Counted from the first letter of the stretch, positions 21,965 to 39,164 are shown. The stretch is DNA of 64,000 bases from an uncultured Alphaproteobacteria bacterium (GCA_944392955.1 CALXYK010000004.1:3419-67418), one strand, 5' to 3'. Made by a program: numbers and translations. The notes: a model not told the origin generated them from the letters alone.

Positions 21965-21992
21965 AAAAAAAAAGGGCTTTAAAAGCCCTTTT
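21962..21992 (-). terminator. rho-independent terminator after the 22011-22679 gene
   Basis: On the minus strand: AAGGGC-loop-GCCCTT hairpin followed by a run of 9 T. Confidence 0.5.
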
Positions 21993-22010
21993 GATAACCA
22001 CAAATAAAAG

Positions 22011-22679
22011 TTAAATAAATATCTGTCCTGTTAATTTAACACTTTTAGGAAAAGCCCTAACACTGCTTTTACCACTTAAATAGATATGACCATCAACAAG
22101 GTTGTCCCCCATAAATGTCACACCATCAGCATTCACAAGATAAATATTACCAAGAACCTTAAAATTCTTAGGTATTTTTAAAAAATCTATATCTTTAATA
22201 TAAACATCGCCCAGGATACAAGTATTAGATTTAAGATAATCCAAATGCCCCTTTGAAAAAACAATATCACCTTTAACTAACAAAGTCTTAGGAGAGATAT
22301 TTTTATTTTTCAAAACAAAAGATTCTTGTGAAGTTAAAACCTGTCTTGAACAATTCTTGCCGGCACAAACTATACGATAATCATCTAAATATTTATCCCC
22401 TACATACTTTTTTAATCCCATAGTCATAGGAATATCTCTTTTAAACTCCTTACCTTCGTCATAAATATAATTCAATTTAGTAGGACGATTAAAAGGCACA
22501 AAAATATTTTCAGGTTTTTCCACCTTATTTGCAACAATATAGGCCTTTACCTTAAATTTTTCAGAATCAATAGCCGACCTGTTCAATGATTTAAGGAACA
22601 AAATACCCCCCACAATCATTAAAAACAATCCAGTAAAAACAAGCACATATCTTTTTTGTTCTGTATTCATAAGAGTCAC
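22011..22679 (-). CDS. hypothetical membrane-anchored protein with beta-rich repeat C-terminal region
   Basis: N-terminal TM helix (VLVFTGLFLMIVGGILFL). The C-terminal half contains short G-D/N-I/V-hydrophobic repeats (GDIVFSKG, GDVYIKD, GNIYLVN, GHIYLSG). Confidence 0.45.
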   Translation of the reverse strand: MTLMNTEQKRYVLVFTGLFLMIVGGILFLKSLNRSAIDSEKFKVKAYIVANKVEKPENIFVPFNRPTKLNYIYDEGKEFKRDIPMTMGLKKYVGDKYLDDYRIVCAGKNCSRQVLTSQESFVLKNKNISPKTLLVKGDIVFSKGHLDYLKSNTCILGDVYIKDIDFLKIPKNFKVLGNIYLVNADGVTFMGDNLVDGHIYLSGKSSVRAFPKSVKLTGQIFI

Positions 22680-22750
22680 CTTTTATTCAAACTATACAGA
22701 TAATATATCCTTATTTTTTTATTTGTCAAGTATTTTGTTTATAATTTTTG

Positions 22751-23632: not shown

Positions 23633-25136
23633 TTACAATCAACCTTTCTGGAACAGCAAATGTTTTAGCCAACCACAAGGCAACTGCCTTTTTATCAACT
23701 ATTGCCAATGCTTCTTCTCCCAACTCTGATAAAGATTTTATCCAACCTAAAATATTTTCAGCATCTCTAACCGCCTGATTTCTAGCAAGAGGTGATTGAT
23801 ATTTCAAATCTACTTCATGGCCATTAACCATGATATCGGAAATTTCACCCCTACGTCTTAATATAGAAATTGCTCTTAAAATAACTGGTGTTAAAAATTC
23901 GGATTGTAATCTTCCATAGGTTGCTCCTAAAATTCTGCTCATTTGATTTGTTCTTTCTAAAACTTCTGTCGCAGTCATTTTAGTAGTAGAAAACGAAGAT
24001 AACTGATCTACCAATAAACTATGATTTATTTTTGCCCGTAAATCTGATAAAACTAATTGAGATACATCAAAATCCGCACCAGTCCTAAGTGGTGTAAGTC
24101 CACTAGATCCAACTGCCTTTGGAATTATAGTTCCCGGAGCAAGAGTAATATTAGAAATATTTAAAACCCCATCATCATCTGCTTGCCATACACCACTAAC
24201 TGCAATACTAGCATTTTTTAAAATCAACTCCACAACTTTATTCGCAGTTTTAATATCGGGCAATGCTTTCATCACTGGCGATCTTCCATATACTTCTGAT
24301 GGAATTTTCAACCACCTGAAACAAATAAACGGAGAATATGCAAAAACACCAGTTTTCAAAACAAACATTTCATTATTTGTTAAAAGTTTATCTGCATCAT
24401 TAACAAAAGCGACATAATTATAACCTTGTTGACCACTAGGTGTAATTCTTGGCAATACTGCTTCTATAACACAAATTTTTTCATCAGGTTTTTTAGAAAT
24501 AATATTCAGCTGTTTATCATCAAATTTAAAATTAGGAAATCTAAGTTTTAAATTTTCCAAAGTCAAAATTGATTTTCTAAAAACAGTATCTAATTTACCA
24601 TTAACATTTTCTTCTAATGCAATTTCATTCATAGGAATTGCTGTAAAATTAAATGCGGTTGTTTCACCAACGCTATTTTCCTCAAATAACATTACCGCTG
24701 TTCCAACAGTAATTAAATCTAAATAACATTGATGAGCCTCAACATAAAAATTAGACCTATCAAAATGAGATTGCAAAACTTTTTGAATATCATCTAATGC
24801 CTTAAATTTTTCTTGTTTATCCCCATTATCTTTATCACAAGCATCAACACCGAAACCCAAACCAAACCATTTTGACCAAGGCGGAGTAAGTTGAGCCAAT
24901 AAACTACCTGCTAATTGTTCCACACCAGATTCAGCAGTAGAATCAAAAATATCAACATTTTTCTTTTTACCATTGGAAATAGAAGTAAATAAACCACTTT
25001 TTTGAGGCAGTGCATAATCATAACATTCACTCCAATGATTTTCCCATTCGGCCCTTTTTTCCATGGCTTTCTGATATCTAGCATAGATTTTAAAAAGTTC
25101 TGTTTCATCAACAATATATTTATTATTTTCAATCAT
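23619..25136 (-). CDS. phage portal / head-to-tail connector protein (T7 gp8-like)
   Basis: 505 aa. The N-terminal pattern (YARYQKAMEKRAEWENHWSECYDYALPQ ... LAGSLLAQLTPPWSKWF) parallels T7 gp8 (YERLKNDRAPYETRAQNCAQYTIP ... LASKLMLALFPMQTWM) as I recall it. Confidence 0.75.
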   Translation of the reverse strand: MIENNKYIVDETELFKIYARYQKAMEKRAEWENHWSECYDYALPQKSGLFTSISNGKKKNVDIFDSTAESGVEQLAGSLLAQLTPPWSKWFGLGFGVDACDKDNGDKQEKFKALDDIQKVLQSHFDRSNFYVEAHQCYLDLITVGTAVMLFEENSVGETTAFNFTAIPMNEIALEENVNGKLDTVFRKSILTLENLKLRFPNFKFDDKQLNIISKKPDEKICVIEAVLPRITPSGQQGYNYVAFVNDADKLLTNNEMFVLKTGVFAYSPFICFRWLKIPSEVYGRSPVMKALPDIKTANKVVELILKNASIAVSGVWQADDDGVLNISNITLAPGTIIPKAVGSSGLTPLRTGADFDVSQLVLSDLRAKINHSLLVDQLSSFSTTKMTATEVLERTNQMSRILGATYGRLQSEFLTPVILRAISILRRRGEISDIMVNGHEVDLKYQSPLARNQAVRDAENILGWIKSLSELGEEALAIVDKKAVALWLAKTFAVPERLIVNADE

Positions 25137-25157: not shown

Positions 25158-25190
25158 ATTAAAAAAACTCCTAAGATTAACTTAGGAGTC
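25158..25190 (-). terminator. rho-independent terminator downstream of ftsZ
   Basis: On the minus strand: GACTCCTAAG-TTAAT-CTTAGGAGT followed by TTTTTTT. Confidence 0.55.
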
Positions 25191-25212: not shown

Positions 25213-26928
25213 TTAGTTATTATTCTTTTTAAATATTGCTGGAATTTCCAAAGTTTCTTCCATTTTTTTTATCATTTCCATCAAATCAGTCTGTTGACTT
25301 TCTCTTTTCTGTTCATCCAAACTTCCAGCCAAAAATACCACATTATCATCTTCTTTTTTTTCTTCTTTCTTAGAAATTGTGAAATCCAATTCTTTATCCA
25401 AAGATAACTTTACATCTTTATCACTACCAAAATTTTCTACATCATCAAAGAAATTATCTTCCTTTGATTCACCTAATAAATCAAAGAATGATGACAAAGA
25501 ACTTTTCTTTTTACCATTTCCACCACCATTGTCCGGAGGAGTTGGTTCATCATCATCATTATCTTCTTTTTTTGCAACCAAATCCATAGGTTCAGATTCG
25601 GAAATTTTTTGTGCTTCTCTATTTATAAAATCATCAATACTAGAAGGTGTATTTTGTTTTATAAAACTATCAAAGGAGTTTTCCTTTTCAAAATTTTCCA
25701 CTTCCTCCGTATTTTCAGAAAACAAAGCATCTGCTCCAAAATCACCTAAAACATTTTTTACATCTTTATCAAAAGTATCATCTTTAATAGGTAATGGTTT
25801 TTCCTCATCTTGACTATTTATATCATTATCAAACGAAGAAAAAGATGAGGTTGTTTTTTCAATACTATTATATGTATTAACATTTTCCTTCATACTGGGA
25901 AAAGTATTTAACTCATCTCTATGAATATTTTTTATTCCTACATTTTCAGATAATCCAGTTGCAATTATCGCGACCTTTAATGAATCGTCCATAGATACAT
26001 CAAAACAAGTTCCAAGATAGAAATTTGTATCATCACTATCAATAGAAGCCCTAATAGTATTCATAACTTCGGCAGGTTCGTCCAAGGATAAATTTTCAGG
26101 ATTAGCCGTTATGTTCACAAGGACTGATTTTGCCCCCCTTATATCATTTCCTTGAAGCAAAGGATTTAACAAAACACCTTCTACTGCCTTTAATGCCCTA
26201 TTTTCGCCACGTTGAACCGAAGTTCCTATTAAAGTTCTACCACTTTTTTCCATTACCGCACGAATATCAGCAAAATCCAAATTTATTGTTCCAGGAATTC
26301 TTATCAAATCGGTAATATTTCTAACTCCGTCATAAAGGACATTATCAGAAATTTTAAACGCATTCAAAAAAGTCATCTGTTTATCAACAACATTATAAAG
26401 ATTCTGATTAGGCAAAACTATATAAGAGTCGACATTAGGAATTAAATTATCAATCGCATCTTTTGCAATTTTTTCCTTCTTTTTCCCCTCAAAATCAAAC
26501 GGCGTTGTTACAATAGCAACGGTTAAAATACCCTTTTCCTTTGCAATAGAGGCAATCACAGGCAATGCACCACTTCCTGTTCCCCCACCCATACCAGCAG
26601 TTAAAAATAAAATATTTGAATTTTTGATTAAATCAGCAATTTCACCACTTGATTCTTCTGCTGCCTTTTGACCTATTTCAGGTCTAGAACCGGCACCAAA
26701 ACCTTTCGTAGTTTGCTTTCCCAGTTGGATTTTTTTCGGCGACTTTGATTGTAATAATGATTGAGCATCAGTATTGGCAACAACAAACTCTACACCATCA
26801 ATTCCCTGCTCTATCATATTATTAACAGCATTACAACCAGCACCACCAACCCCCATTACCATAATTTTTGGAATAAAATTTTGAATCTCATCATCAAGAG
26901 ATTTATAACCAAAATTTCCATCAAGCAT
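25213..26928 (-). CDS. ftsZ: cell division GTPase FtsZ
   Basis: Tubulin signature GGGTGSGA, GVGGAGCNAVN, T7 loop NLDFADI. Long disordered acidic linker. Conserved C-terminal FtsA-binding peptide (LEIPAIFKK). Start set at the Met preceded by AAGGGGGA. Confidence 0.95.
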   Translation of the reverse strand: MLDGNFGYKSLDDEIQNFIPKIMVMGVGGAGCNAVNNMIEQGIDGVEFVVANTDAQSLLQSKSPKKIQLGKQTTKGFGAGSRPEIGQKAAEESSGEIADLIKNSNILFLTAGMGGGTGSGALPVIASIAKEKGILTVAIVTTPFDFEGKKKEKIAKDAIDNLIPNVDSYIVLPNQNLYNVVDKQMTFLNAFKISDNVLYDGVRNITDLIRIPGTINLDFADIRAVMEKSGRTLIGTSVQRGENRALKAVEGVLLNPLLQGNDIRGAKSVLVNITANPENLSLDEPAEVMNTIRASIDSDDTNFYLGTCFDVSMDDSLKVAIIATGLSENVGIKNIHRDELNTFPSMKENVNTYNSIEKTTSSFSSFDNDINSQDEEKPLPIKDDTFDKDVKNVLGDFGADALFSENTEEVENFEKENSFDSFIKQNTPSSIDDFINREAQKISESEPMDLVAKKEDNDDDEPTPPDNGGGNGKKKSSLSSFFDLLGESKEDNFFDDVENFGSDKDVKLSLDKELDFTISKKEEKKEDDNVVFLAGSLDEQKRESQQTDLMEMIKKMEETLEIPAIFKKNNN

Positions 26929-27033
26929 TTTTTCCCCCTTTTGACTTCTTTCCTTAATTATATCATAAAAAAAGGTAAAAGTTAAGAGATAAAAACATAA
27001 AAACAAATAATTTTATTTTTTTAAGCAAAAAAA

Positions 27034-27486
27034 CTAAGAACCAACAAAATTGTCCAATGCCTTTTTGCATGCCTCCGAAGCATCTATCAACTTATTTATA
27101 TTAGAAAGAGCACCAGCAGACACACCAAGAGACAATACATTCGCACCTGTTGCAATACCAGAAGAAACCAAAGAAATAGTTCTATTTTTTTCTAGATTTT
27201 TCATATCATCAATGTCTATTTCTCCAGAACTTTTTGCTACATTATTAGCAGATAATGCAGTTGAAGTAGCAGATCCAGCCGTCGCAACAGCCGAAGTAAC
27301 ACCAGTTGTAATAGATTGAGCCTTCAAACTATTCAAAACAGATCCATCAAATTTACATGCAGAAATCACATCTGAAATATATGGTTCTTTCTTTCTTACA
27401 CTATCCGAAGATAATTTTGCCTCTGCACCAAAGGATAAAAAAGAAGCCGACACAACAAAAACTAAACTATAAGATAAAAACTTCAT
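27034..27486 (-). CDS. secreted Ala/Ser/Thr/Gly-rich protein
   Basis: Start at the Met with a GGAGG ribosome-binding site. Signal peptide MKFLSYSLVFVVSASFLSFGAEA. Low-complexity A/S/T/G segments. The C-terminal motif is similar to the C-terminus of the upstream 612-aa protein. Confidence 0.5.
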   Translation of the reverse strand: MKFLSYSLVFVVSASFLSFGAEAKLSSDSVRKKEPYISDVISACKFDGSVLNSLKAQSITTGVTSAVATAGSATSTALSANNVAKSSGEIDIDDMKNLEKNRTISLVSSGIATGANVLSLGVSAGALSNINKLIDASEACKKALDNFVGS

Positions 27487-27487
27487 T

Positions 27488-29326
27488 TTAATCCTCCATT
27501 CCACTAACTTCTGCATTATATGATGAATAAGCATTATTTAAGGTTCTAATACTATCTTCACATTGTTTTAAATTTGTTATTGCATCTTCTATCGTAGCAA
27601 GGGATACAAAACTTACAACAGATGCAGTTCCACTAGCAAGAGACGAAGCCGCACTTAACCCAACCTGCCATTTATCAAAATCTTTTGCTGAAGCCAAAGC
27701 TTTACCACTAGCATCTCTTAACTCATGTATTTTTGTTTTATTACTCTCTACTATTGCTTGTTTACTTGAGATAGATTCTAATTCTGCATTTTTTTGAGCT
27801 AAAAGTTCATTTTTATTTATTTTTTCGCTCTCTTTTTCTTGTTTAACCTCATTTTCAATTTGTCCTGGTTCAGATTTTTCAAGTTGGTCATTAACATCTT
27901 TTAATTTAATATTTAAATCCTCAATAACCTTGTCTATATTATCCATTTGGGACTTATAGTCATTACATTTATCAACATTTTCCTTTGCATCGTTTATTTT
28001 ATTATTTAACTCTTTTATTGTTTTTTCCTTCTCTTCCTTCTGGGATTTTAATTTGGAAATGGCACTCATTTTAGCTTCCTCTAATGCAGAATCTGTTTCA
28101 TTATTATCAGCATCCAATTCTCCCAAATCTTTCATAAGGACATCTATTGAATCATTAAGCCCCAATACCGCCTTTTTTGCATTTGCCAAACTTTCTTCAT
28201 TTGTTTTGTTGTCTGAAAGTTTATTTTCACAGGCTAAATTATTATAACTATTCTTAATAGTCGTTTGTTCTTTTTTTTGTTTTGCAATAACTTGCTCTAA
28301 AGCATCTTTTTCTGCTGTTAATTTAGTTTTTCTATCTTCTATTGTTCCATATTTAATAGTAGAAACTCCATTCAAATCTGTATTTTTTGATAAAATAATT
28401 TGTCCCTCTTCCAAATTTGATATATCACTATCAATAGACTCTATTTCTGTATTTAACTTAGCTACTTCTCTTTCTAACTTTTCTTTCTCCCCATCCAAAC
28501 CTTGACCTATACTTGTATTTTTAGTTCCAAGGCTCTTCTCTGCATCGTGATAATAAATTGCATCTTTTGTATTTTTAAGTGATAATGCACCAACAACTGT
28601 GCTACCTGTACTTAACACACTACCAACACCAGATGTCAAGGAAACCCCATAAGTTATTTGGGATTTAAGTTTTTCCATATCATTCACAAATGCACCACAT
28701 TTTTCTCGTGCAGTTTGAACTGCTGAATTTATTTTTTTCTCATATTCTGAAACATCAACAAAAATCTCGCTTTCCAAATACATAGAGGCGATTAAATTTC
28801 CCGCCCTTGTTACATAAAGTTTTCTTCTATCCGAAGATAATCCAGAGTTATCAACAACCGAACTAATCTGTGAATTTGTTCCATTTAACAAAGAAACCGA
28901 ATAACTATATTTAGGAAGCAAATCTACACATTTTATCTCCCCTTCCGCAGATACAACATCCATCGCCCCCGAAGAATCCATTCCAACCAATTTCATATAA
29001 GGACCGAAACAAAACTTTTCATCCAATTTAGCCGTTCCATTAGTATAATAATAATTATATACTGATGGTAATAACATAGTACTTAAACTATACGATTCAT
29101 CATAATATAATTTATCCAAATGCACCGAGTTTAAAAACCTTAACACAGATCCAGAAATATCCGAAGAATTAGAAGAGGAACTTGACGAAGTCGTACGTCC
29201 CGAAGATCTGCTATTTGGACTTCTACTGCCACCTGAATTAACTACACGAGCAGCGAACAATCCTCCATCTGAAAACAAATAAGATAAAAAGACCAATCCA
29301 CAAAGTAAATTAAACTTCTTTTTCAT
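27488..29326 (-). CDS. large secreted coiled-coil protein
   Basis: Signal peptide. Ser-rich low-complexity stretch. About 300 aa of Lys/Glu-rich heptad-like coiled coil. C-terminal A/S/T-rich domain. Confidence 0.55.
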   Translation of the reverse strand: MKKKFNLLCGLVFLSYLFSDGGLFAARVVNSGGSRSPNSRSSGRTTSSSSSSNSSDISGSVLRFLNSVHLDKLYYDESYSLSTMLLPSVYNYYYTNGTAKLDEKFCFGPYMKLVGMDSSGAMDVVSAEGEIKCVDLLPKYSYSVSLLNGTNSQISSVVDNSGLSSDRRKLYVTRAGNLIASMYLESEIFVDVSEYEKKINSAVQTAREKCGAFVNDMEKLKSQITYGVSLTSGVGSVLSTGSTVVGALSLKNTKDAIYYHDAEKSLGTKNTSIGQGLDGEKEKLEREVAKLNTEIESIDSDISNLEEGQIILSKNTDLNGVSTIKYGTIEDRKTKLTAEKDALEQVIAKQKKEQTTIKNSYNNLACENKLSDNKTNEESLANAKKAVLGLNDSIDVLMKDLGELDADNNETDSALEEAKMSAISKLKSQKEEKEKTIKELNNKINDAKENVDKCNDYKSQMDNIDKVIEDLNIKLKDVNDQLEKSEPGQIENEVKQEKESEKINKNELLAQKNAELESISSKQAIVESNKTKIHELRDASGKALASAKDFDKWQVGLSAASSLASGTASVVSFVSLATIEDAITNLKQCEDSIRTLNNAYSSYNAEVSGMED

Positions 29327-29538: not shown

Positions 29539-29570
29539 AACTCCTTACTTCAAATGTAAGGAGTTTTTTC
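29539..29570 (+). terminator. rho-independent terminator after tRNA-Phe
   Basis: Hairpin CTCCTTAC-TTCAAAT-GTAAGGAG followed by TTTTTT. Confidence 0.5.
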
Positions 29571-29584
29571 ATAAATACATTTTA

Positions 29585-29765
29585 AACATCTGGTTCGTAT
29601 ACTCGTATAACACGCTAAGCCAAAAAAAATCCCCTGTTGCGAGGAGAGAACACGAACGAAGTTGTTCTTAATGACGAGCGGTGTTAGCGAGGAATTTTAG
29701 AACATCTGGTTCGTATACTCGTATCACCCGCTAAGCCAAAAAAATCCCCTGTTGCGAGGAGAGAA
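29585..29765. repeat. two ~66-bp direct repeats (29585-29650 and 29701-29765), the second ending in a stem-loop
   Basis: The units read AACATCTGGTTCGTATACTCGTAT(A/C)AC(A/C)CGCTAAGCCAAAAAAA(A)TCCCCTGTTGCGAGGAGAGAA and differ at 3 positions. In the second unit CCCCTGTTGCG pairs with CGCAACAGGG at 29788-29797 around a GA-rich loop. Confidence 0.6.
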
Positions 29766-30134
29766 GGAGGAAAGGAGAGAAAAGGAACGCAACAGGGAAT
29801 AACTTTGAAAATAAATTTAAAAATATACTTAAATTCACTTCACATTCTCGATTCTTAATATACTCGACAAAAAAAGTCAAGCGATTCTTTTTTTGGCTAT
29901 TTTTTAAAGTGATTTAAAAAGCAAAAAAAACACTAAAATCAAATAGTTAAAAAAATGATTTTTTTTAATAAGAATCAATATTGTCTATAAAAATCTACTA
30001 TCTAAAAGAAGCAAAAACACGATTCTTTTAACACAAAAAAAGAATCGACTCCGAATCTTTTAAAACACAGTAAAGTTTTAGCAATTTAATTACCAAATAG
30101 CAAATAAAAAAACACATTTTTACAAAAAAAATAT

Positions 30135-30232
30135 CCCTTAAGTCGAGGAGAGAGAGAAAATAAGGAGGGAATGACTTAAGGGATCTTCGGTTTTCACCGA
30201 ATTTGCCGAAATGAGGGGTCGTCTCGGCAAAC
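30135..30232. other. cluster of three consecutive hairpins in non-coding DNA (candidate structured RNA or recombination site)
   Basis: CCCTTAAGTC-(28-nt GA-rich loop AGGAGAGAGAGAAAATAAGGAGGGAAT)-GACTTAAGGG; TTCGG-TTTTCA-CCGAA; TTTGCCGA-AATGAGGGGTCG-TCTCGGCAAA. Confidence 0.4.
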
Positions 30233-30351
30233 TTTATATTCGTATTAACGAATTGCCTTCATTATACAAATCATTTATACTTTGTCAAGATATTTTTGCA
30301 AAAATATTTTTTCTGTATAAAACAATATAAAAATTCCCATAAAAACAACAA

Positions 30352-30951
30352 CTAAACTTTATATATTGTATCAATAGTATGTGGCGTCCCTATAAAAATT
30401 TGCATACCATCTGGAACTAAAATAAAATTGTATTCCAGTAATCTCTCCCTTAAATCAAGCCTTTTTTGATATGTATCACAATTTTTGGGAACCTCTACAT
30501 CATCAAAAATTATAACATCCGCCCTACTTCCCGTCGCATTAGACAATAAGCCAACTGCTAACATAGAGGGATCCCTTAACTCCTTACTTCTCACAACGGT
30601 AAAACTACCAGACGCCCAATCTGATTTTTTCTTTGGCCTAATATCTTCCATTAAAGGATTAACCTCTATAATACGTTTTACATTTTTAACCATTTTTCTC
30701 GCTAACATAGTATCAGCAGCCACCACCAAAATTCTTGTATTAGGATTTTTATACAAAAGCCAAGCACAAAATATTCCAACAATAGTTGACTTCCCACTAC
30801 TTCGAAAAGCCATCAACAAGCCCCTTTTTTTATCTGATAAATAGATACTTTCAAGCCATTTTGCAATTTTAATATGATGTTCTGGCGTATCTATTTCTTG
30901 TAATTTATTCCAAGCCAACAAAAACTTTTCAAAATTTAACTTTCTTTTCAT
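30352..30951 (-). CDS. phage large terminase, N-terminal ATPase-domain fragment (T7 gp19-like)
   Basis: Walker A LMAFRSSGKST. Walker B ADVIIFDDVE. Coupling motif IFIGTPHT. Nearly colinear with the T7 gp19 N-terminal region as I recall it (LQAFRGIGKSF...RADIIIADDVEIP...YLGTPQTE). The ORF stops right after the ATPase domain. Confidence 0.85.
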   Translation of the reverse strand: MKRKLNFEKFLLAWNKLQEIDTPEHHIKIAKWLESIYLSDKKRGLLMAFRSSGKSTIVGIFCAWLLYKNPNTRILVVAADTMLARKMVKNVKRIIEVNPLMEDIRPKKKSDWASGSFTVVRSKELRDPSMLAVGLLSNATGSRADVIIFDDVEVPKNCDTYQKRLDLRERLLEYNFILVPDGMQIFIGTPHTIDTIYKV

Positions 30952-30952
30952 T

Positions 30953-31393
30953 TTATAAAATATTCAAACTATAAAAAGCAGAATCCAACAATTTCAAAGC
31001 ATCTTTGTCTTTTGAAAGTAAATTTTTGTTTTTTTTGTAATTATAATTCAATTCATTTGTTTTTAAATCTAAATCTGAAAAATAATCATTATTTTTAATA
31101 TCTTCATCTACTTCTTTTTCTATATTACCAAGCAAAACAGCCGAAGAACCATCTGTAAAATCTAAACCATTTGCAGCCATAGTAGCCTTTTTCGTAGCAA
31201 GTTTAGATTTTAATAAATCTGTTTTTTCCTGCTCATATACTTGTTGTTTCTTTTTAATTTCAGCATCTGCTAATGCTTTCTCCTGTTTGGCCATTTCTGT
31301 CGCTGCCTTTTTAGCATCATTAGATTCTTTTATATCCATAACAGTTTTTGCAACATTTGCAACACCAGCGACAACACCTGTACTTACACCCAT
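30953..31393 (-). CDS. hypothetical coiled-coil protein (possible small terminase or internal virion protein)
   Basis: 146 aa. Lys/Glu/Ala coiled-coil segment. Its stop codon is 1 nt from the terminase ATG. Function not assignable. Confidence 0.35.
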   Translation of the reverse strand: MGVSTGVVAGVANVAKTVMDIKESNDAKKAATEMAKQEKALADAEIKKKQQVYEQEKTDLLKSKLATKKATMAANGLDFTDGSSAVLLGNIEKEVDEDIKNNDYFSDLDLKTNELNYNYKKNKNLLSKDKDALKLLDSAFYSLNIL

Positions 31394-31403
31394 AATTAAC
31401 CTC

Positions 31404-33311
31404 CTACTTTATTATATCTATTAACATTGAAAAACTTAGAATTTTTAATTTATAAGGTTTTGAACTTTGTATTTTAAACAAAGGAATTTCATAATTTTTT
31501 ACAAATCCTTTACCTCGTATTCTTAAATCCCCCGTATAATAAGGCAAACTTTCATCAAAACAATTTCCACTATCAAAATTCAAAAAGACAATAGTCCTAA
31601 GCCCAGAACCTGTATCAATTTGAACTAATGGAGTATCCATAACCCTTAATGTCAATTCCAACAATCTAACAGACTTTGGAATATAACTCCAACTTATAAA
31701 TGTAGGTAATGGACAATATATATGAGTAAAAGGCAAACCAATTATAATATTTTTAGAAGTCTTAGGTAATATTATTTTATTATCTACCACTTCTAAATCA
31801 TATATATAATCATCTGCATTAACTACAACCTTTTTACCATTTAAAAATGAAAGATTTTCTACCATATCAATACCTGTTTCTGATGTAATTTTTTTAGAAC
31901 AATCACAAGAAACATCTTCATCAAAAACTTCTAAGAAATAATTACTTCCTCGTTGAACTACAACATAAACTTTATCAACCAAAACAGACAAGGAAAGTAT
32001 TTTACCATCTGTTTCATATCTTACCCAAGCATTTATATTATATGTTTTATTTGTTAACAATACAGCCAAAGTTCCATCTTCTTGAACAACATATAACATT
32101 CTTTTTTTGACATTATAATCCTGCTCAATCGGACTATTTAATAAGTGATTAGATAACAAAATTAAATCTTGCGAAGAATAATTTTCACTTAAATCACCAT
32201 AAAAAAACTCTCTTATCTCTTTTTTGTTTCTAGCCACAAAAATAGTAGAACCTTCTACTAATTTAGGGGCTATATATCTATCAGAAATAGACCCTATCTT
32301 AGTTTGTTGAGAAACTATTATATTAGACGGAGTAAGAGGACTTCCCGTAATCATCCATTCAGAGTCCGAAGTAAACACCTGTAAATGCCTACCTGAAAAT
32401 ACTGATAATATTTCATTAACCTTATCAGAAAATATATCAAACTCTATTGATTCATCATCAAGTCCGGTTCCCAAATCAAAATTCATAAAATCACCAGTCT
32501 TAGAAAACCACAACCTATTGCTTAAACTTTTTGAACCACCAATTACCAATCTATTTTGGTGAAACGCAATACTTTTAGGATAACCACGGCGTTGTGAAAA
32601 ACTCTGTTCTTGCCAATTTGCATCAGCATTAACATCGGATAAATTTGATTTTACCTCTGCATTTGCAATAGTTTCAGATTCAATAGAAGTAATAAGAACT
32701 TCTCCACCATCTAATGTAATCCTAATATTAACCCAATTATCAGAGAACAAATTTTTACTTGCTGTAATTTGAATATTACCTGTTTTTGCAGACGGAGTAA
32801 GAGTTATACCTTCTGTATCATCAAATCTATTAAATGGTTGACAAGAATAACCATAAGTTGCATTTGTAGCATATATCCAAGACGAAATTGACCAAGTTTC
32901 ATTTAACAAATCGTATTTTAATATTTGAGGTTCAATATCTGGATGAGCCAGATATAACTCACTACCTTTCTGCGACCATCTTAAATTTTTTAAATCAGCA
33001 ATCGCATACGGCGAAGTCAAAGAAGACACTTTTTCTTCATTTTCATCATAAATATCAATCGTATTATTTCCAAAAAACAAAATAAAAAGTTTTTCACTGG
33101 AATATTCAAAAGAAATTATTTTACCTTCTGTTGACAAAGTATCAACATATCTCAGACCTTCCCTTCTTTCTATTCCACCCGTAGCAATCACATTCATATT
33201 TGTAATTGTCATAGCCCCACTTTTGTAAGCGGTTGAATTTCCCCTACCAAATAAATTTCTTGATAATTCTCCAAACGAAAAGTTAGACATAGTAATAGTT
33301 TGCTTTACCAT
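31404..33311 (-). CDS. tail tubular protein B-like (T7 gp12-like)
   Basis: 635 aa. Positioned after a gp11-like gene. The mid-region pattern (ILSVFSGRHLQVFTSDSEWMITGSPLT...IFVARNK) parallels T7 gp12 (LFSEELLIWSDEAQFVLTASGTLT...VYFASPR) as I recall it. Confidence 0.6.
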   Translation of the reverse strand: MVKQTITMSNFSFGELSRNLFGRGNSTAYKSGAMTITNMNVIATGGIERREGLRYVDTLSTEGKIISFEYSSEKLFILFFGNNTIDIYDENEEKVSSLTSPYAIADLKNLRWSQKGSELYLAHPDIEPQILKYDLLNETWSISSWIYATNATYGYSCQPFNRFDDTEGITLTPSAKTGNIQITASKNLFSDNWVNIRITLDGGEVLITSIESETIANAEVKSNLSDVNADANWQEQSFSQRRGYPKSIAFHQNRLVIGGSKSLSNRLWFSKTGDFMNFDLGTGLDDESIEFDIFSDKVNEILSVFSGRHLQVFTSDSEWMITGSPLTPSNIIVSQQTKIGSISDRYIAPKLVEGSTIFVARNKKEIREFFYGDLSENYSSQDLILLSNHLLNSPIEQDYNVKKRMLYVVQEDGTLAVLLTNKTYNINAWVRYETDGKILSLSVLVDKVYVVVQRGSNYFLEVFDEDVSCDCSKKITSETGIDMVENLSFLNGKKVVVNADDYIYDLEVVDNKIILPKTSKNIIIGLPFTHIYCPLPTFISWSYIPKSVRLLELTLRVMDTPLVQIDTGSGLRTIVFLNFDSGNCFDESLPYYTGDLRIRGKGFVKNYEIPLFKIQSSKPYKLKILSFSMLIDIIK

Positions 33312-33318
33312 ATTTCAC

Positions 33319-33873
33319 CTACTTTCTTATATCCACAAGTGGGAAATTTACAAAAGATTTATTAGTTTCTTGCATACTATCAATAGATTTTGCCTCTCTT
33401 ATTTCCGAATTAAATAATTTATAAAATAAAGAATATTTACTAGTATCATTTAACAAAGAAATAGAAAGTTCAGCCGCCATCAGATAAACAAATGCAGAAA
33501 TAAACACAGGTGTAAAATATTCTTCGTTCACATTTGCAATATAATCCAAATACACCTCTTCATCATTACAATAAAGATAATTTCCTAAAATTTTATAAGG
33601 CGAATTAGAAGAAATTTTTAATGCTCGCAAAAAATCACCTGGCAAAGCATAAGAATAGCCATACTCACTTTTACTATCTTCAACAACTCTATTTAATTTC
33701 TGAGAAGCAGTCGCAAAACTCCACGAAAATATAGAAAGCAATTTATATTTTAGCGTAGAATATAAACTTCCACATATTTCAGCTTCCGGAGTTCCCTCAT
33801 CAAAAGACACAATTGCATTAGCCCCAATTTTGTTAAGGGCTTTGGAACATAAATCAATACTTGAAAAACTCAT
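33319..33873 (-). CDS. tail tubular protein A-like (T7 gp11-like)
   Basis: 184 aa. The N-terminal pattern ALNKIGANAIVSFDEGTPEAEICGSLY parallels T7 gp11 [30 protein letters not shown] as I recall it. Located between the capsid gene and gp12-like, as in T7. Confidence 0.55.
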   Translation of the reverse strand: MSFSSIDLCSKALNKIGANAIVSFDEGTPEAEICGSLYSTLKYKLLSIFSWSFATASQKLNRVVEDSKSEYGYSYALPGDFLRALKISSNSPYKILGNYLYCNDEEVYLDYIANVNEEYFTPVFISAFVYLMAAELSISLLNDTSKYSLFYKLFNSEIREAKSIDSMQETNKSFVNFPLVDIRK

Positions 33874-33931
33874 ATTATCACCTTTTTATTCAAAAGCCCC
33901 TTTATACAAAGGGGCTACAATTAACTTAAAA

Positions 33932-34189
33932 TTAAGATGCTGGTGAAATAATATCAGAAACCACTACTACACCAGAAGTAATAGAACTTACAACAAATAT
34001 ACTTGTTGTCAAAGTTCCATCTATATCCATAGAACTAACAATCAAATCGCCAACATTAAAAATATTAGCAACAGAATTAAAATAATTTTGACCAGTAACA
34101 ACAGTTTTCTCATCATCTGTTTTATAATGCCACAAAGTAAAACCATTTGAATAAGCTAACACAGATAAATTTTTAGAATTCATACTCAT
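33932..34189 (-). CDS. hypothetical small protein
   Basis: 85-aa ORF between the capsid and gp11-like genes. No motifs. Confidence 0.3.
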   Translation of the reverse strand: MSMNSKNLSVLAYSNGFTLWHYKTDDEKTVVTGQNYFNSVANIFNVGDLIVSSMDIDGTLTTSIFVVSSITSGVVVVSDIISPAS

Positions 34190-34217
34190 TTTTATATTTC
34201 CTCCTATTTAGTTTTAA

Positions 34218-35048
34218 TTAAGCAATAGTTGCATCATCATCACAAAGTATTTTAACAATACCAGTATCGTCTATAAGTTTCGCTCCTTGGCTCATACAAT
34301 TAGAAATAAAATGAGCTGCCCTTTCACCATGCCAGGTAATATCAGTTTTCACATCACAACCAGACGCATGTCCAACAGCATTTTTATGATAAATAAAACA
34401 ACTTCTTACACCTTCATTGCAAGGAAGAGCATTATGCAAAATCCAATTTATACCCATCCATTTTCTAGATTCTGTTCCTTTAAGTAATGGATAATTATCA
34501 CCAACATAATCGGCATTTGAAAATTCCTCTAAACTTAAAAGTTCATTCCATTGATGAACACCAACAACACCAAATCTTTGACCATCATCAGGCACATCAT
34601 TATTGTTAAGTATTTCCAAAGCTTGAAATATCTTTGATTTAGTAAAACCTACACCAGAAGTATCAACAGAATTAGTTGCATTGTTAAGTTCATTAATAAT
34701 AAGTTCATCACTCTTTCTACCTAAGGCATAAGCGCCAGCAGAAGCAACAACTCTTCTTTCATCTACATTTGTTTTTAATTCATCAAGTTCATCAACCCAA
34801 TCTCCTGCATAGAAATCAGACAACACACATTCAACAGGAGTATGATCTAAATTCATAACAGGAACAAGTCCGTGTCTAGCTTTTGTACTTGCAAGACCTT
34901 TACCTATTTTTTGAAAGGTAGTTGAGGTTCCTCTTACATCACTTTTTGTTCTAACAGTAGAACGTAATTTTGTTCCCATCTGTTGAAATGCAAGATGAAC
35001 TTCTGCCTCAAATTGTTTTATAAATACTTTATCAATAGAAACTGACAT
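34218..35048 (-). CDS. phage major capsid protein (T7 gp10-like, short form)
   Basis: 276 aa. The N-terminal segment (VFIKQFEAEVHLAFQQMGTKLRSTVRTKS...TFQKIG) and C-terminal segment (HKNAVGHASG) parallel T7 gp10A as I recall it. Follows the scaffold gene as in T7. Confidence 0.7.
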   Translation of the reverse strand: MSVSIDKVFIKQFEAEVHLAFQQMGTKLRSTVRTKSDVRGTSTTFQKIGKGLASTKARHGLVPVMNLDHTPVECVLSDFYAGDWVDELDELKTNVDERRVVASAGAYALGRKSDELIINELNNATNSVDTSGVGFTKSKIFQALEILNNNDVPDDGQRFGVVGVHQWNELLSLEEFSNADYVGDNYPLLKGTESRKWMGINWILHNALPCNEGVRSCFIYHKNAVGHASGCDVKTDITWHGERAAHFISNCMSQGAKLIDDTGIVKILCDDDATIA

Positions 35049-35155
35049 AATTTATATCTCCTTATTTTTTATTAAACTAACGATAGGTTAAAACCTACCA
35101 ATTAAAAAAATCCGCCATATAAATGACGGATTAAAAGTATAATTAAACCCAAATT

Positions 35156-35722
35156 TTATTTATTATCTTTCTTCACAAGAACCGGTTCTATACTACTTAA
35201 TAAGCCATGCATAGAAGTCAATGTAAATAATACAGACACAAAAGATAATATAAATATCTCAATAGAAGATCTTATCAATTGCGGTGAATATCTAGTCAAC
35301 AATAAAACATCGACATAAAATATAACCGAAAAGATAAACGATAATAAAAAAGCAATTAAAGATTGCACCTTAAAAGTGTTCTTAAATATATATTCCACTT
35401 TTAATTTTCTAGATTTAATCATAATAAATTTTAAAATCAAACACACAAATACGAACGGAACATAAAATTTTATAATAGAGAAAATAGCATCAACAACAGC
35501 AATAAAGAAAATCTCTATTGGATTCATTGAAAATCTCAATGTTTCATAAACATCCAATTCTTTCATAAAAGAAAAGGCAAAAAACACAATAACAGAAAAA
35601 ACTAATGTAAATTTTAATATTCCTTTTGTATGATTATAAAAAAATCCCAACAAAGAACCTAAAAAAGAAGATTTTTTACTTTCAACTTTCTTAGTCTTAT
35701 CGTTGGGATTTGATACCAACAA
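35156..35722 (-). CDS. hypothetical 4-TM membrane protein
   Basis: Four hydrophobic helices. No motifs. Inserted between the scaffold and capsid genes. Confidence 0.4.
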   Translation of the reverse strand: MLVSNPNDKTKKVESKKSSFLGSLLGFFYNHTKGILKFTLVFSVIVFFAFSFMKELDVYETLRFSMNPIEIFFIAVVDAIFSIIKFYVPFVFVCLILKFIMIKSRKLKVEYIFKNTFKVQSLIAFLLSFIFSVIFYVDVLLLTRYSPQLIRSSIEIFILSFVSVLFTLTSMHGLLSSIEPVLVKKDNK

Positions 35723-35730
35723 AGAAACTT

Positions 35731-35997
35731 CTATTTCTTCGCTACTTTTTTTTTTGCTACTGGTTTAACTGGCTTTTTAACAGAAGCAACTTTAACAGCA
35801 GCTTTTTTTACAACAATTTTTTTCTTAGGAGCTGCTTTAACAACTACTTTTTTTGCAGGTGCTTTTTTAGCAACTACTTTTTTTGCAGGAGCCTTTGTAG
35901 CAACTACTTTTTTAGCTGGAGTTTTTTTTGCAACTGGTTTAGAAGCTACTTTTTTAGCAGCAGGTTTTGCAGTTTTTTTAATTATACTTTTAAACAT
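35731..35997 (-). CDS. histone H1-like Lys/Ala-rich DNA-binding protein
   Basis: Start set at Met15 with an AAGGAGAG ribosome-binding site. 88 aa of PAKK/VAKK repeats (KPAAKKVASKPVAKKTPAKKVVATKAPAKKVVAKKAPAKK...). Confidence 0.6.
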   Translation of the reverse strand: MFKSIIKKTAKPAAKKVASKPVAKKTPAKKVVATKAPAKKVVAKKAPAKKVVVKAAPKKKIVVKKAAVKVASVKKPVKPVAKKKVAKK

Positions 35998-36097
35998 ATT
36001 CCTCTCCTTATTAAACAAAAGACAACTACAATATACCATATAAAAAAAAAGACTGCAACATCAAAAATAAAAAAAAGTAAAAAAAATTTAAAAATTT

Positions 36098-36685
36098 TTA
36101 TTCATCACCATATAAAAATTTAAATCCATCATCAACTTTTTTAATGAAATCTTTATCTCCATCTCTCCAATACTTTGGATCCTTCATCATTTCTTTTAAT
36201 TTTTTCTCTGTAATACCACATTGAGATTCACCAGATTTTGCCATAACTTTCGGCTCATTGGATGTCATCATATTATACAAAGCAAGCACACCATAAAACG
36301 AAGAATTCAAAGAATTATAAATTTCCTGAGGAACATTTTTTTCTGCCCACAAAGAAATTTGACGAGAAATTTCATCAAATCTTTCTTCTCCACCAAAATA
36401 ATTTTCAAGTTTTGAAAGTTCTCTGTAAGCACGAAATTCCTCTATTACTTCTTGAATCTTTGGAATCATAATTTCAGCAGCAAGGTCATAAACCAATTGG
36501 ACCTGAGCATTTGTGAAACCTGCTTCTTTTAAACGTTTATTGACATTTTGATCAACTTGTAAAAATTTATTATGAAGCACTATTTGATAGTCTTTATCAG
36601 CACCATCAGTTTTCAAAGCCAAATCTAAAACATCTGTGTTTTCACGATCAGTATTTTTATTTTGATCAACTTTTTGATTATACAT
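36098..36685 (-). CDS. phage scaffolding protein (T7 gp9-like)
   Basis: The C-terminus (ERFDEISRQISLW...KLKEMMKDPKYWRDGDKDFIKKVDDGF) parallels the T7 gp9 C-terminus (ERFDALYNHLETH...EMIKAMSDPRYRTDANYRRQVEQKVIDSNF) as I recall it. Located upstream of the capsid gene. Confidence 0.6.
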   Translation of the reverse strand: MYNQKVDQNKNTDRENTDVLDLALKTDGADKDYQIVLHNKFLQVDQNVNKRLKEAGFTNAQVQLVYDLAAEIMIPKIQEVIEEFRAYRELSKLENYFGGEERFDEISRQISLWAEKNVPQEIYNSLNSSFYGVLALYNMMTSNEPKVMAKSGESQCGITEKKLKEMMKDPKYWRDGDKDFIKKVDDGFKFLYGDE

Positions 36686-36806
36686 TTCATACTCCTTTAT
36701 TTTAAAAATTTATTTTTCAAATATTTTAAAAGGTCAAAAATAATAAAATATTTCATAGGAACCTTTTTAAATATTATTTTCATAAAACTAAAACTTTTAA
36801 ACATTT

Positions 36807-37025
36807 TTACTTTTTTTTAGAATTTAAACTATCAATTTTCTCTGTTAAAGTTGTAGAAAGTTCTTGTCCCAAAAATATTACACCAAACAAAGGAATAACA
36901 ACTTGTAGCAAATCTACCAACCCTACATCGCCAACTAAATAAGCGGCAACACAAGAAATCACACTAACAATCGCAGTAATCAAAGTTTTTTTAGTTTGTA
37001 AAAAACCACCTGTAATTATACTCAA
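36807..37025 (-). CDS. small two-TM membrane protein (holin-like topology)
   Basis: 72 aa. Two hydrophobic helices and a charged C-terminus (KKK). Confidence 0.3.
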   Translation of the reverse strand: MSIITGGFLQTKKTLITAIVSVISCVAAYLVGDVGLVDLLQVVIPLFGVIFLGQELSTTLTEKIDSLNSKKK

Positions 37026-37049
37026 TTTAATCTCCTTATTTTATTTAAG

Positions 37050-37496
37050 TTACATACAAATATCATAGAAATAAAAATCATCTATAATATATTTCGGAGA
37101 AACATTTTTAGCCCAAAAAGGACATTTCTCCTTTTTATGAAACTCAATTGCATCAAATTTTTTACTTTCTACATTATTTAAAGACAAAACATCTCCTGCA
37201 ACCTTTAAACAAGTTTTAAAGTAATCAGAATTTGTATCAATTGAATCCATATTTTTTAAATTCTTCCATGCAGGGAAAATATTAACAGATGTCAAAAGTT
37301 TTACTATATCAGGAAATGTTTCTGATATTTCCACTTCATAAAAAAATCTATTAACAATAGTCATCGCAACAGATTTTAACAAAAGATTCGAAGCATCTTT
37401 TTCCAGAGAATATAAACTTTTTGCTAAAATAAATTTGTTAATATTGGAATTTATTTTCAATTTTTTCAAAAGCTTTTCTCTATTTTCAATAAACAT
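37050..37496 (-). CDS. hypothetical protein
   Basis: 148-aa ORF. No motifs. Confidence 0.3.
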   Translation of the reverse strand: MFIENREKLLKKLKINSNINKFILAKSLYSLEKDASNLLLKSVAMTIVNRFFYEVEISETFPDIVKLLTSVNIFPAWKNLKNMDSIDTNSDYFKTCLKVAGDVLSLNNVESKKFDAIEFHKKEKCPFWAKNVSPKYIIDDFYFYDICM

Positions 37497-37792
37497 TATG
37501 ATTTTCCCCCTGAAATTTTTTCTTCAATCCTAAGCAAATGAGCAGTCAAACGATTTTCCACATCTTTCAAACATGAAATAGATGCATAATTCATAGCCAC
37601 ATCAACACGAAACGATGCAATATTTTCAATTAAATTAATTACATCTTTTTTAGATTTGGCCTCTACATCTTTTAAATTATTTTCCAAAGTGGAAATATTA
37701 TTTTTCAAAAGCCAAAATGCGCCTATAAACAATGGAAGTTCAACCACACTTATCCACCAGGATAAATTGATATTTTCCATTTTTTTCTCCAT
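37496..37792 (-). CDS. hypothetical N-terminally anchored coiled-coil protein
   Basis: TM helix (WWISVVELPLFIGAFWLL) followed by a coiled coil. ATG and stop overlap with the next gene. Confidence 0.3.
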   Translation of the reverse strand: MEKKMENINLSWWISVVELPLFIGAFWLLKNNISTLENNLKDVEAKSKKDVINLIENIASFRVDVAMNYASISCLKDVENRLTAHLLRIEEKISGGKS

Positions 37793-37949
37793 AACTATTT
37801 AAAAATGAAAAAACCCTCTCTGAATAAAAAGGGCATAAAAAAACTAATGCAGATACAATTATCCCATTAGTTGAAAAACACTATACCACATTTTTACAAA
37901 AATGTCAAGAACATTTTAAGAACAAAATTAACTTTTATTTAGAAATCAG

Positions 37950-38456
37950 CTAGAAATCCAGTTTATACATAGAGTTCACAGATACAATATTTTTATTTTT
38001 TCCCACAACAACTTCTAATTTTTTTTTCAAATTATATATATGCGTTGATAAACTTTTCAGATTCGATTCTGTATTTTTTTTAAAAATAACTTCAACAAGA
38101 GAAAGCGCCGAAACTCCTTTATCCTTTGCTTTTAGCAATTGAAGTAAAATCGCATTTTCAATATTAGTCAAAGTTATTTTATCATCTCCATTTATAATAC
38201 ATTTTCTGTTTGAGAAAAATTTAGCATTACCAATATAATAAAATGAAGAAGACTTAATCACATCAATCAAAGAAAAGAAATTTAAAGGCTTATAAAAATA
38301 ATGAATATTATTCAAAACAAACTTATCACTATCATCACTTAAAATAAAATCCGCAACGGATGCATCATTAACAACAGACACAGAAAAATCCCTAAATAAC
38401 TTTTTTAAGGTATCTTTCACACAATCATCCGACAATTTCAAAAAAATCGTAATCAT
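37950..38456 (-). CDS. OmpR/PhoB-type winged-helix DNA-binding protein with truncated receiver-like N-terminus
   Basis: The C-terminal ~95 aa match the trans_reg_C winged helix (...LKSLSTHIYNLKKKLE...SMYKLDF). Only ~75 aa precede it, so a full receiver domain cannot be present. Confidence 0.5.
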   Translation of the reverse strand: MITIFLKLSDDCVKDTLKKLFRDFSVSVVNDASVADFILSDDSDKFVLNNIHYFYKPLNFFSLIDVIKSSSFYYIGNAKFFSNRKCIINGDDKITLTNIENAILLQLLKAKDKGVSALSLVEVIFKKNTESNLKSLSTHIYNLKKKLEVVVGKNKNIVSVNSMYKLDF

Positions 38457-38537: not shown

Positions 38538-39164
38538 ATGAATAAATTCATAAAAATATTATCCATTACAGCCATACTTTGTTCATGCAGTGGAATTTAT
38601 ACACGTATGGCAAATAGTGATTTGGAAATCAAAACTAATATGACTAAAACAATATGGTTAACTCCAACAGATCCTGCTCAAACAAAAATATATGTTCAAG
38701 CAAGAAATACATCTGATAACAAAGAATTCAATGATTTGAGAACATATATAAAATCCTCATTAGAAAGCAAAGGTTATACAATAACAAATAATCCAAACGA
38801 AGCAACATTTATACTACAAACTAATGTATTAAAGGCAATTTTGAATAATAATTCAGTAAGCAAATCTAATACCCAAAACGATGCTCTTACAACGGCGGTA
38901 GGTGTAGGATATGCAGTAGGAAGTAAAAATGATGACCTAACCGCAGTAGGTGCCGGCCTTGCAGCAGGACTTGCATCTATGTATTTTGATGCAAAAACAA
39001 AAGATGCAACATACTATGTTCAAACGGATATAAAAATAACCGAAGGAAATAAATCTTATACAACATCTTTAAATGTAGATGCAAAAAAGGTAAATTTAAC
39101 AGTAGAAGAAGCATCCATTAAAATGAAGGAAGCAATTGCGAACTCTCTTTCTGGACTATTCTAA
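38538..39164 (+). CDS. traT: TraT-like surface-exclusion / complement-resistance outer-membrane lipoprotein
   Basis: Lipobox LCSC. Colinear with F-plasmid TraT as I recall it: LEIKTNMTKTIWLTP vs LEVKTQMSETIWLEP; NVLKA; GAGLAAGL; KVNL...EEA. Confidence 0.75.
   Translation: MNKFIKILSITAILCSCSGIYTRMANSDLEIKTNMTKTIWLTPTDPAQTKIYVQARNTSDNKEFNDLRTYIKSSLESKGYTITNNPNEATFILQTNVLKAILNNNSVSKSNTQNDALTTAVGVGYAVGSKNDDLTAVGAGLAAGLASMYFDAKTKDATYYVQTDIKITEGNKSYTTSLNVDAKKVNLTVEEASIKMKEAIANSLSGLF

Follow-up and report, generated by a model that had tools for sequence, protein, structure and literature searches.

The known gene transfer agents (GTAs) of Alphaproteobacteria are siphovirus-like. To our knowledge only a handful of independent domestications of a phage into a GTA are known, and none of those with identified genes is derived from a podovirus. 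The particles of Dd1 of Desulfovibrio are short-tailed, and we know of no identification of their genes. Here we examine a T7-like, podovirus-type element in a 64,000-nucleotide stretch of DNA from an uncultured alphaproteobacterium (GCA_944392955.1, CALXYK010000004.1:3419-67418). We call this whole stretch the window; positions without a locus name are counted from its first letter. The element is probably the reduced and rearranged descendant of an anciently domesticated set of podovirus head, stub-tail, packaging and lysis genes, one that makes DNA-filled, GTA-like particles. That it has been domesticated and is selectively maintained we hold with high confidence.

How does this element compare with RcGTA, the best reference point among such agents? 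The two share a structural cluster of about 15 kb (in the contiguous form described below), the lack of replication genes, a fixed chromosomal place, vertical descent, strong purifying selection and extra genes elsewhere. Neither has an ejectosome, so that entry of DNA would depend on the recipient. They share no homologous genes, every Pfam, PHROG and NCBIfam match of the element being of T7 type, and for this reason the element is not a member of the RcGTA family. It has the stub tail of a podovirus in place of a siphovirus tail, its ancestral form has a LexA/CI-like repressor alongside, and its terminase, in the form found here, is fissioned. Like Dd1, VSH-1 and VTA, it would represent an independent domestication of a tailed phage into DNA-carrying particles, in hosts unrelated to theirs; unlike RcGTA, it is known here from its genes alone. 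The contrast with siphovirus-like agents was already drawn in the original prediction made for this DNA, and a classification paper is in agreement with it (PMC9662315). We found no account of an alphaproteobacterial GTA of T7-like or podovirus type in a search of the full-text literature that had most subscription journals outside its scope.

The nearest cultured relative is the Pelagibacter phage EXVC031P Hodr (OQ414635). Its portal, Bbp19-like, scaffold, capsid, 81–85-residue, gp11 and gp12 genes stand in the same order as in this family, at 28–45% identity. Hodr differs in possessing large internal proteins, encoded by genes of 2352 and 3744 bp after gp12, which the window lacks, and in having a terminase of a different family, that of the window being T7-type. 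From T7-like podoviruses in general the window differs in lacking RNA polymerase, DNA polymerase, primase and fibre, and in that the element is probably not one packageable unit. Since polymerases, core proteins and fibre are absent, the element is not a T7-like phage.

Where in the window does the element lie? The window is AT-rich alphaproteobacterial chromosomal DNA with a G+C content of about 30% throughout; that of the phage-like module equals that of the host DNA and is thus fully ameliorated. The element occupies three pieces distributed over 35 kb of housekeeping DNA: 21295–25136 (piece C), 30352–38456 (piece B) and 55479–56624 (piece A). Housekeeping genes including ftsZ, kdtA, macAB and efp part them. 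The original prediction had placed the limits at 30352–36685. The element extends well beyond these, taking in lysis-type genes and a promoter (37050–37908), a Bbp19-like gene (21686–22003), and a repressor fragment with two leader genes (55479–56624). All genes of the element lie on the minus strand except the repressor fragment, which is on the plus strand.

The core of the element was described correctly. Pfam, PHROG and NCBIfam matches confirm a scaffold of the T7 gp9 family (36098–36685; PF05396, E 2e-8), a major capsid protein (34218–35048; PF19821, E 2e-75), a gp11-like adaptor or tail tubular protein A (33319–33873; phrog_394, E 2e-41), a gp12-like nozzle or tail tubular protein B (31404–33311; phrog_376, E 3e-115) and a terminase gene (30352–30951). 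The tight packing of these open reading frames (ORFs), with the stop–start coupling at 30953/30951, is also as first reported. The order scaffold, capsid, gp11, gp12 is kept while the portal of the T7 gp8 family (23619–25136; PF12236, E 1e-124) is displaced, lying, as had been noticed, away from the scaffold and beside the second part of the terminase. The terminase assignment stands as to type, but the gene at 30352–30951 encodes only the N-terminal ATPase core, 199 residues covering positions 1–189 of the 500 of NF033889 (255 bits). The remainder is a 293-residue C fragment (22751–23632), its gene overlapping the end of the portal gene, that covers NF033889 positions 231–500 and phrog_38 positions 468–713.

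No RNA polymerase, DNA polymerase, primase(-helicase) or integrase turned up in the 64-kb window. This negative is based on Pfam scans of ten polyproteins, covering about half of the ORFs outside the module, and for the other ORFs on reading of the translations, Pfam marks on some homologues, and tblastn with all Hodr ORFs. The internal core proteins gp14–16 and the tail fibre gp17 were likewise not found in the window. To this extent the predicted list of missing genes holds; it fails in that one small internal virion protein of 146 residues is present (30953–31393; phrog_418, E 1e-10), at the same position throughout the gut clade described below. When the window was searched by tblastn with the proteins of relatives, no fibre, tail spike, lytic transglycosylase, gene at the small-terminase position or holin was found. 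In the relatives the fibre is itself reduced to an N-terminal PF03906 domain. A search around the pieces for attachment-site repeats yielded only short, AT-rich chance matches.

The rearranged layout, fissioned terminase included, is found in nine species-level lineages: that of the window and eight others (loci L007, L008, L087/88, L089, L090/91, L093, L094, of which only the N part is seen, and L095). The eight come from metagenomes, and the labels of their metagenome-assembled genomes (MAGs) point to rumen, termite gut and mouse gut. The recurring arrangement has a phrog_29007 and/or an endolysin-like gene ahead of the scaffold, then the terminase N fragment, and farther on the portal followed by the terminase C fragment. 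Across these lineages identity falls to 45% for gp12 and to 55% for the FtsZ core, with every ORF and every terminase catalytic motif intact. In seven of the eight lineages where the stretch is visible, the host cell-division gene ftsZ, which is not phage-derived (25213–27006, minus strand; Tubulin and FtsZ_C domains on its homologues), lies between the terminase halves. It occupies this position in L007, L008, L087, L089, L090 and L095 but is absent from it in L093; the linkage is thus common, not obligatory. At L093 (9890–16458), a more distant member of the clade, the split halves are separated by ORFs of 651 and 184 residues without known function. The flanks of the close relatives L087, L089, L093 and L095 consist of housekeeping genes on both sides, among them accBC, ddl, topA, rpe and mipZ.

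Are these genes under selection? We compared the window with L007, L008 and L087 by the Nei–Gojobori method, using the FtsZ GTPase core as benchmark because the FtsZ linker is variable. The ratio of non-synonymous to synonymous substitution rates (dN/dS) was 0.09–0.15 for the capsid, 0.12–0.18 for the portal, 0.07–0.14 for the terminase N fragment, 0.13–0.22 for the C fragment, 0.11–0.31 for gp11, 0.23–0.33 for gp12, 0.18–0.31 for the scaffold, 0.14–0.20 for the phrog_29007 protein and 0.23–0.33 for a 188-residue membrane protein, against 0.08–0.18 for the FtsZ core; with dS at 0.8–3, near saturation, these values are approximate, and the true ratios are, if anything, lower. The internal virion protein, at 0.23–0.70, is less constrained. 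The capsid equals or exceeds the FtsZ core in identity to the window in every lineage compared: 87% and 85% in L007, 82% and 77% in L008, 83% and 78% in L087, 77% and 62% in L089, and 75% and 55% in L090, respectively. Within the species (window versus L001) there are 9 synonymous and 3 non-synonymous differences. The element appears to be inherited vertically and kept by selection.

In the gut-clade form the terminase is split into two genes. The two genes cover NF033889 positions 1–189 and 231–500, their ends are about 6.7 kb apart, and they are not a single polypeptide. The N fragment aligns with residues 20–211 of T7/T3 gp19 and ends just past motif III. In an alignment with ten intact relatives, the N fragments end in GTPHTxxTIYKV and the C fragments resume about ten residues farther on, so that a short loop alone is lost. 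The fission therefore lies within the ATPase domain, not at the hinge between ATPase and nuclease, and the C fragment comprises the remainder of the ATPase domain and the RNase-H-like nuclease. The ATPase motifs are kept: Walker A (AFRSSGKST), Walker B with the catalytic Glu (ADVIIFDDVE) and motif III (GTPH). So are the acidic nuclease motifs of the C fragment (WWDPAY...GDxSV, VESNGIGKFLP and DDGLDSVAGA). A cut within the ATPase domain means that the fragments must reassemble to work, as they presumably do. Since both fragments keep all ATPase and nuclease motifs at dN/dS of 0.07–0.22, it may be argued that DNA packaging is still the selected activity. Might the halves be rejoined by a programmed rearrangement of the DNA? 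There are no direct repeats at the two junctions, and in every species both halves carry start and stop codons of their own; we rejected this possibility. Both parts can be seen in 64 genome loci and 53 IMG/VR loci; of all these, only L007 and L008, two loci of the gut clade, have them apart. A sequence search of the PDB with the C fragment gave no match. The matches of the N fragment in a library of 50%-identity representatives have lengths dominated by gene fragments and are uninformative as to the frequency of fission. For the study of viral packaging motors the gut-clade form is a natural experiment: a large terminase cut inside its ATPase domain, with both halves long conserved.

What did the element look like before it was rearranged? 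Homologues of the gp12-like protein number more than 1650, almost all of them 625–647 residues long, and relatives are encoded in at least 519 species genomes, one genome having been scanned per species. The hosts include Micavibrio aeruginosavorus, Magnetospirillum, Azospirillum, Roseicella, Hwanghaeella, Pacificispira and many MAGs. Most relatives form one contiguous cluster, which in the 35 loci where both ends can be seen has a median length of 15.3 kb. It begins with a divergently transcribed repressor, composed of a helix-turn-helix (HTH) domain and a Peptidase_S24 domain, and two leader genes, and continues with portal, Bbp19-like protein, scaffold, capsid, the 81–85-residue protein, gp11, gp12, a small internal protein and a variable region with a tail spike. 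It closes with a small gene at the small-terminase position, an intact terminase of about 490 residues, the phrog_29007 protein, a SleB-type endolysin and a holin-like protein.

These clusters, too, sit among host genes. The Micavibrio cluster, about 15 kb long in the complete genome, lies between genes for a pfkB-family kinase and an EamA-family transporter. Replication genes belong to the set in none of the loci examined. Recurrent neighbours are NAD kinase or purC upstream, and NhaA, isocitrate dehydrogenase or EamA downstream, in 10–23 loci each. In a census of 138 flanking ORFs, 20 had Peptidase_S24 and a single one, tabulated individually, was an integrase; replication families are absent among the 25 families listed. 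In pairwise comparisons, gp12, capsid and portal diverge in step with the flanking NhaA or NAD kinase (Spearman correlation of identities 0.54–0.68); for the terminase the correlation is weak (0.15–0.35). The median identity of gp12, capsid and portal is 63–75%, compared with 53–55% for the neighbours. About 14 loci carry insertions of 2–8 kb inside the cluster, and seven have no portal near the capsid. A self-packaging virus could hardly tolerate such insertions and the lack of a nearby portal. In sum we find phage-derived structural genes without replication or integration genes, conserved neighbours, co-divergence with them, and purifying selection. It is the genes lacked, the mode of inheritance and the selection that lead us to suggest GTA-like behaviour.

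IMG/VR contains 421 relatives; among the 80 listed, most are on contigs of 4–18 kb. At L171 (229–7416) and L134 (1726–6916) the genes ahead of the capsid are not portal and scaffold but ORFs with matches to virion structural, internal lytic and DNA-ejection proteins; these two may be real prophages of the same structural lineage. GenBank entry MT838907.1 (5 kb, 'Bacteriophage sp.', human faeces) has a capsid gene 62% identical to that of the window and is probably a fragment of a related bacterial module deposited as phage.

How might so scattered an element be controlled? Piece A (55479–56624) retains the head of the ancestral cluster. The 79-residue HTH protein (56385–56624, plus strand) is the N-terminal DNA-binding domain of the family's LexA/CI-like repressor, with 50–60% identity over about 72 residues to the module-adjacent repressor of 35 loci; the S24 domain has been lost. 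Leader gene 1 (55838–56218, 126 residues), the first module gene in relatives, encodes a candidate Q/AlpA-like antiterminator or sigma-region-4-like factor; its model resembles Q21 and AlpA, with weak fold scores. Leader gene 2 (55479–55859, 126 residues) encodes a candidate permuted papain/NlpC-P60-like cysteine hydrolase. The arrangement in relatives, a divergent, autocleavable HTH–S24 repressor adjoining a small activator gene and then lysis or particle genes, is like that of AlpR/AlpA and PrtR/PrtN in Pseudomonas aeruginosa.

Ahead of piece B a consensus scan found a promoter, an initial transcribed box and a terminator-like hairpin (37813–37908, minus strand): TTGACA-17-TGGTATAGT, then the box CAACTAATGGGATAAT, then a hairpin with a T-run at 37834–37813. 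Promoter and box are kept in L007, L008 and L090 despite saturated synonymous sites, and the region has no second copy in the window. Terminator-like hairpins are enriched in the region, 16 being found where 5.9 ± 2.5 are expected. A terminator-like hairpin (25166–25190, minus strand) lies between the ftsZ stop codon and the ribosome-binding site of the portal. A hairpin with a T-run stands there in five species, with differing sequence, and since it fills the gap there is no room for a promoter before the portal. The order of a promoter and then a terminator ahead of late genes is that of lambda Q antitermination. We hypothesize that hairpins and promoter form a late transcription unit driven by antitermination, which would explain why piece B, ftsZ and piece C have stayed on one strand.

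The following cycle may be proposed. The truncated HTH repressor would control the two leader genes, and the leader 1 factor would let RNA polymerase from the promoter at 37908 pass the terminators in piece B and the one after ftsZ. Such read-through would turn on expression of the portal and of the C fragment of the terminase. Portal, scaffold and capsid would then form a procapsid, and the two terminase fragments would reassemble into a motor that packages DNA with no recognisable small terminase, and for that reason probably without sequence specificity. Then gp11 and gp12 would close the head, and particles would be released by lysis. Delivery of the DNA, with neither ejectosome nor fibre, would depend on the recipient, as for RcGTA. 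The element may transfer genes, of which we are less sure than of particle production. The complete picture, an ancient and vertically inherited GTA family that arose from a T7- or pelagiphage-like podovirus, extends over hundreds of species and has acquired here a working two-gene terminase and an antitermination circuit wired into the ftsZ locus, is offered tentatively; that all its parts hold together is somewhat less likely than not.

Several points weigh against the GTA-like interpretation. Particle production and DNA transfer are predictions from gene content. The window has no receptor-binding protein, no candidate small terminase and no ejectosome, and the endolysin homologue is under relaxed constraint (dN/dS 0.49–0.66), so that a classical adsorb-and-inject cycle looks impossible and release uncertain. 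The near-saturated dS makes all the selection estimates approximate. We know of no working example of a large terminase split inside its ATPase domain. The promoter and terminator calls are consensus matches, and the fold scores of the leader proteins are weak. The sequence seen of this genome amounts to 64 kb. Finally, the family is not uniformly domesticated. A few relatives sit in regions of 48–57 kb with matches to virion structural, internal lytic and DNA-ejection proteins, and one IMG/VR locus has, judged by its translations alone, a probable integrase and a DNA methylase nearby. Because some members sit in fuller phage gene sets, the family also includes, or shades into, genuine prophages. 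The modules of about 15 kb lack the proteins for DNA ejection and internal lysis that these prophage-like relatives carry.

Could the window then show part of an ordinary T7-like prophage that is intact, with its early and replication genes beyond the ends of the window? The 48–57 kb predicted proviruses with their ejection proteins, and the single locus with a nearby integrase, lend this some colour. But the pieces are parted by housekeeping genes over 35 kb, the flanks of relatives are housekeeping on both sides, attachment-site-like repeats are missing and the G+C content is fully ameliorated; we regard an intact prophage as scarcely credible. The original prediction had set a domesticated particle against a decaying prophage, and had named two findings that would overturn the former: remaining T7-like genes just outside the window, or relatives with frameshifts and stops at dN/dS near 1. 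Neither was found. Housekeeping genes flank the element in relatives on long contigs and in the complete Micavibrio genome, and the relatives have no frameshifts or stops, at dN/dS of 0.07–0.33. For these reasons we reject the decaying remnant, and the domesticated alternative is supported. An incomplete set in three scattered pieces, with a fissioned terminase and without its fibre and repressor domains, does resemble a remnant drifting to loss. Such drift is very improbable when the same layout persists with intact ORFs in nine synonymous-saturated lineages and conservation of the capsid matches that of the FtsZ core. One recently spread mobile sequence, which might mimic such persistence, is excluded by protein identities of 45–87% and a matching divergence of FtsZ. 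Head and packaging genes without replication genes or fibres would also suit a phage satellite, a phage-inducible chromosomal island (PICI) or a capsid-forming PICI-like element with its own head and a helper phage for the rest. Features of the PICI type (integrase, replication initiator or primase, attachment sites) were not found in the window within the coverage given above, the element has its own gp11/gp12 tail, and its chromosomal position is fixed and its divergence shared with its neighbours, all of which makes a satellite highly improbable.

A domesticated element need not transfer genes. It might instead serve as a killing or decoy particle, in disposal or storage of DNA, as a particle for interaction with the gut host, or in a role linked to the cell cycle, as its neighbours ftsZ and mipZ would suggest. 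This alternative is unlikely but must be taken seriously. In its favour, the window lacks candidates for fibre, tail spike, ejectosome and small terminase, constraint on the endolysin homologue is relaxed, the repressor has no SOS-cleavable domain, and in several species the element encloses ftsZ and adjoins mipZ. Against this, the motifs of both terminase fragments and their low dN/dS argue for packaging; in L093, moreover, ftsZ is not between the fragments, and its linkage is thus not obligatory. We also know of no precedent for a bacteriocin or nanocompartment derived from a podovirus. If the GTA-like interpretation is true, gut alphaproteobacteria may exchange DNA by way of capsids. The family is widespread and includes the cultured Micavibrio aeruginosavorus, Magnetospirillum fulvum and Azospirillum agricola, so that particles and transfer are directly testable.

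The remaining genes of piece B, which runs from the phrog_29007 protein at 37792 down to the terminase N fragment at 30352, are as follows. A membrane/coiled-coil protein of 98 residues (37496–37792; phrog_29007, E 1e-17) is a candidate member of a lysis cassette; in relatives it stands after the terminase and before the endolysin, in synteny in 56 loci. Next comes a divergent SleB-type (Hydrolase_2) endolysin homologue of 148 residues (37050–37496), whose tblastn match to the Micavibrio endolysin is weak (E 0.002); Hydrolase_2 is faint or weak on its homologues in L089, L094 and L095. A hydrophobic protein of 72 residues (36807–37025), kept within the gut clade, has homologues at the same position in L007 (70%), L090 (38%) and L089 (34%). 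Between scaffold and capsid there are two ORFs. One, Lys/Ala-rich and histone-H1/HC2-like (35731–36039, 102 residues; PF07382, E 1e-5, below the curated cut-off), is built of 30-nt tandem repeats (repeat family D2) and differs in length by strain, reaching 138 residues in L001; its product may be a DNA-condensing internal protein. The other, a multi-pass membrane protein of 188 residues (35156–35722), is kept there in the gut clade, at 34–59% identity in L007, L008, L087 and L089. A small virion-module protein of 85 residues (33932–34189; phrog_18004, E 1e-11) is encoded after the capsid in 67 of 80 genome loci and in Hodr. The winged-helix (Trans_reg_C) regulator at the head of the piece (37950–38456; PF00486, E 2e-7) is the same neighbour in L001, L002, L007 and L094, and its association with the module is likely.

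In piece C, which descends from 25136 to 21295, portal and terminase C fragment are followed by three genes. The first, adjoining the terminase, encodes a 222-residue protein with an N-terminal membrane helix (22011–22679), 45% identical in L008 and matched by an ORF of 213 residues in the same place in L095. The Bbp19-like small phage protein (21686–22003; PF25181, E 7e-11) is encoded between portal and scaffold in relatives, in synteny. An XRE-type HTH regulator (21295–21567; phrog_8 and phrog_3, E about 1e-12) ends the piece, and L095 has an HTH_3 gene at the matching site.

Between pieces B and C lie a tRNA-Phe gene, conserved repeats resembling small RNAs, two surface-protein genes and ftsZ. 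At 29560–30300 (minus strand) a perfect sigma-70 promoter (30288–30261) precedes a conserved putative transcript of about 130 nt, with a CU-rich stretch CATTCCCTCCTTATTTTCTCTCTCTCC and a terminator; counterparts occur at 12914–13700 in L007 and 13694–14530 in L008. This first unit is nearly identical in three species with saturated synonymous sites, and two more terminator-bearing repeat units (repeat families D5 and D6) lie downstream. Rfam has no family for the conserved non-coding element after the terminase N fragment. The units between that fragment and tRNA-Phe look like tandem small RNAs of anti-Shine–Dalgarno type. Two secreted or coiled-coil proteins without family match are encoded at 27034–29326 (minus strand), between the terminase N fragment and ftsZ; they are present in L007 (40–44% identity), not in L008 or L089.

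The housekeeping genes of the window comprise trxB, prmC, rpe, ftsQ/ftsA, ligA, lptB, obg, def/fmt, truA, mipZ, ftsZ, macAB-tolC, efp, kdtA, ftsK, lolA and tsaE. The ftsZ gene is some 17 kb from ftsQ/ftsA (6306–8301). The gene mipZ, for the FtsZ-positioning ATPase (20474–21286, plus strand), directly abuts piece C, as it does in L095 (20587–21402), which leaves the portal and the terminase C fragment enclosed between ftsZ and mipZ. A gene for a TraT-like lipoprotein stands beside the module in the window (38538–39164, plus strand), in L094 (3076–3702) and in L095 (722–1363), and in the window and L094 the small winged-helix regulator adjoins it. Farther away, at 49619–51505 (minus strand), an ORF of 628 residues contains long acidic tandem repeats (EEVSEPVAEEVVEETAPAVEE...); its product may be a surface protein, an N-terminal stretch being LysM-like on reading of the translation.

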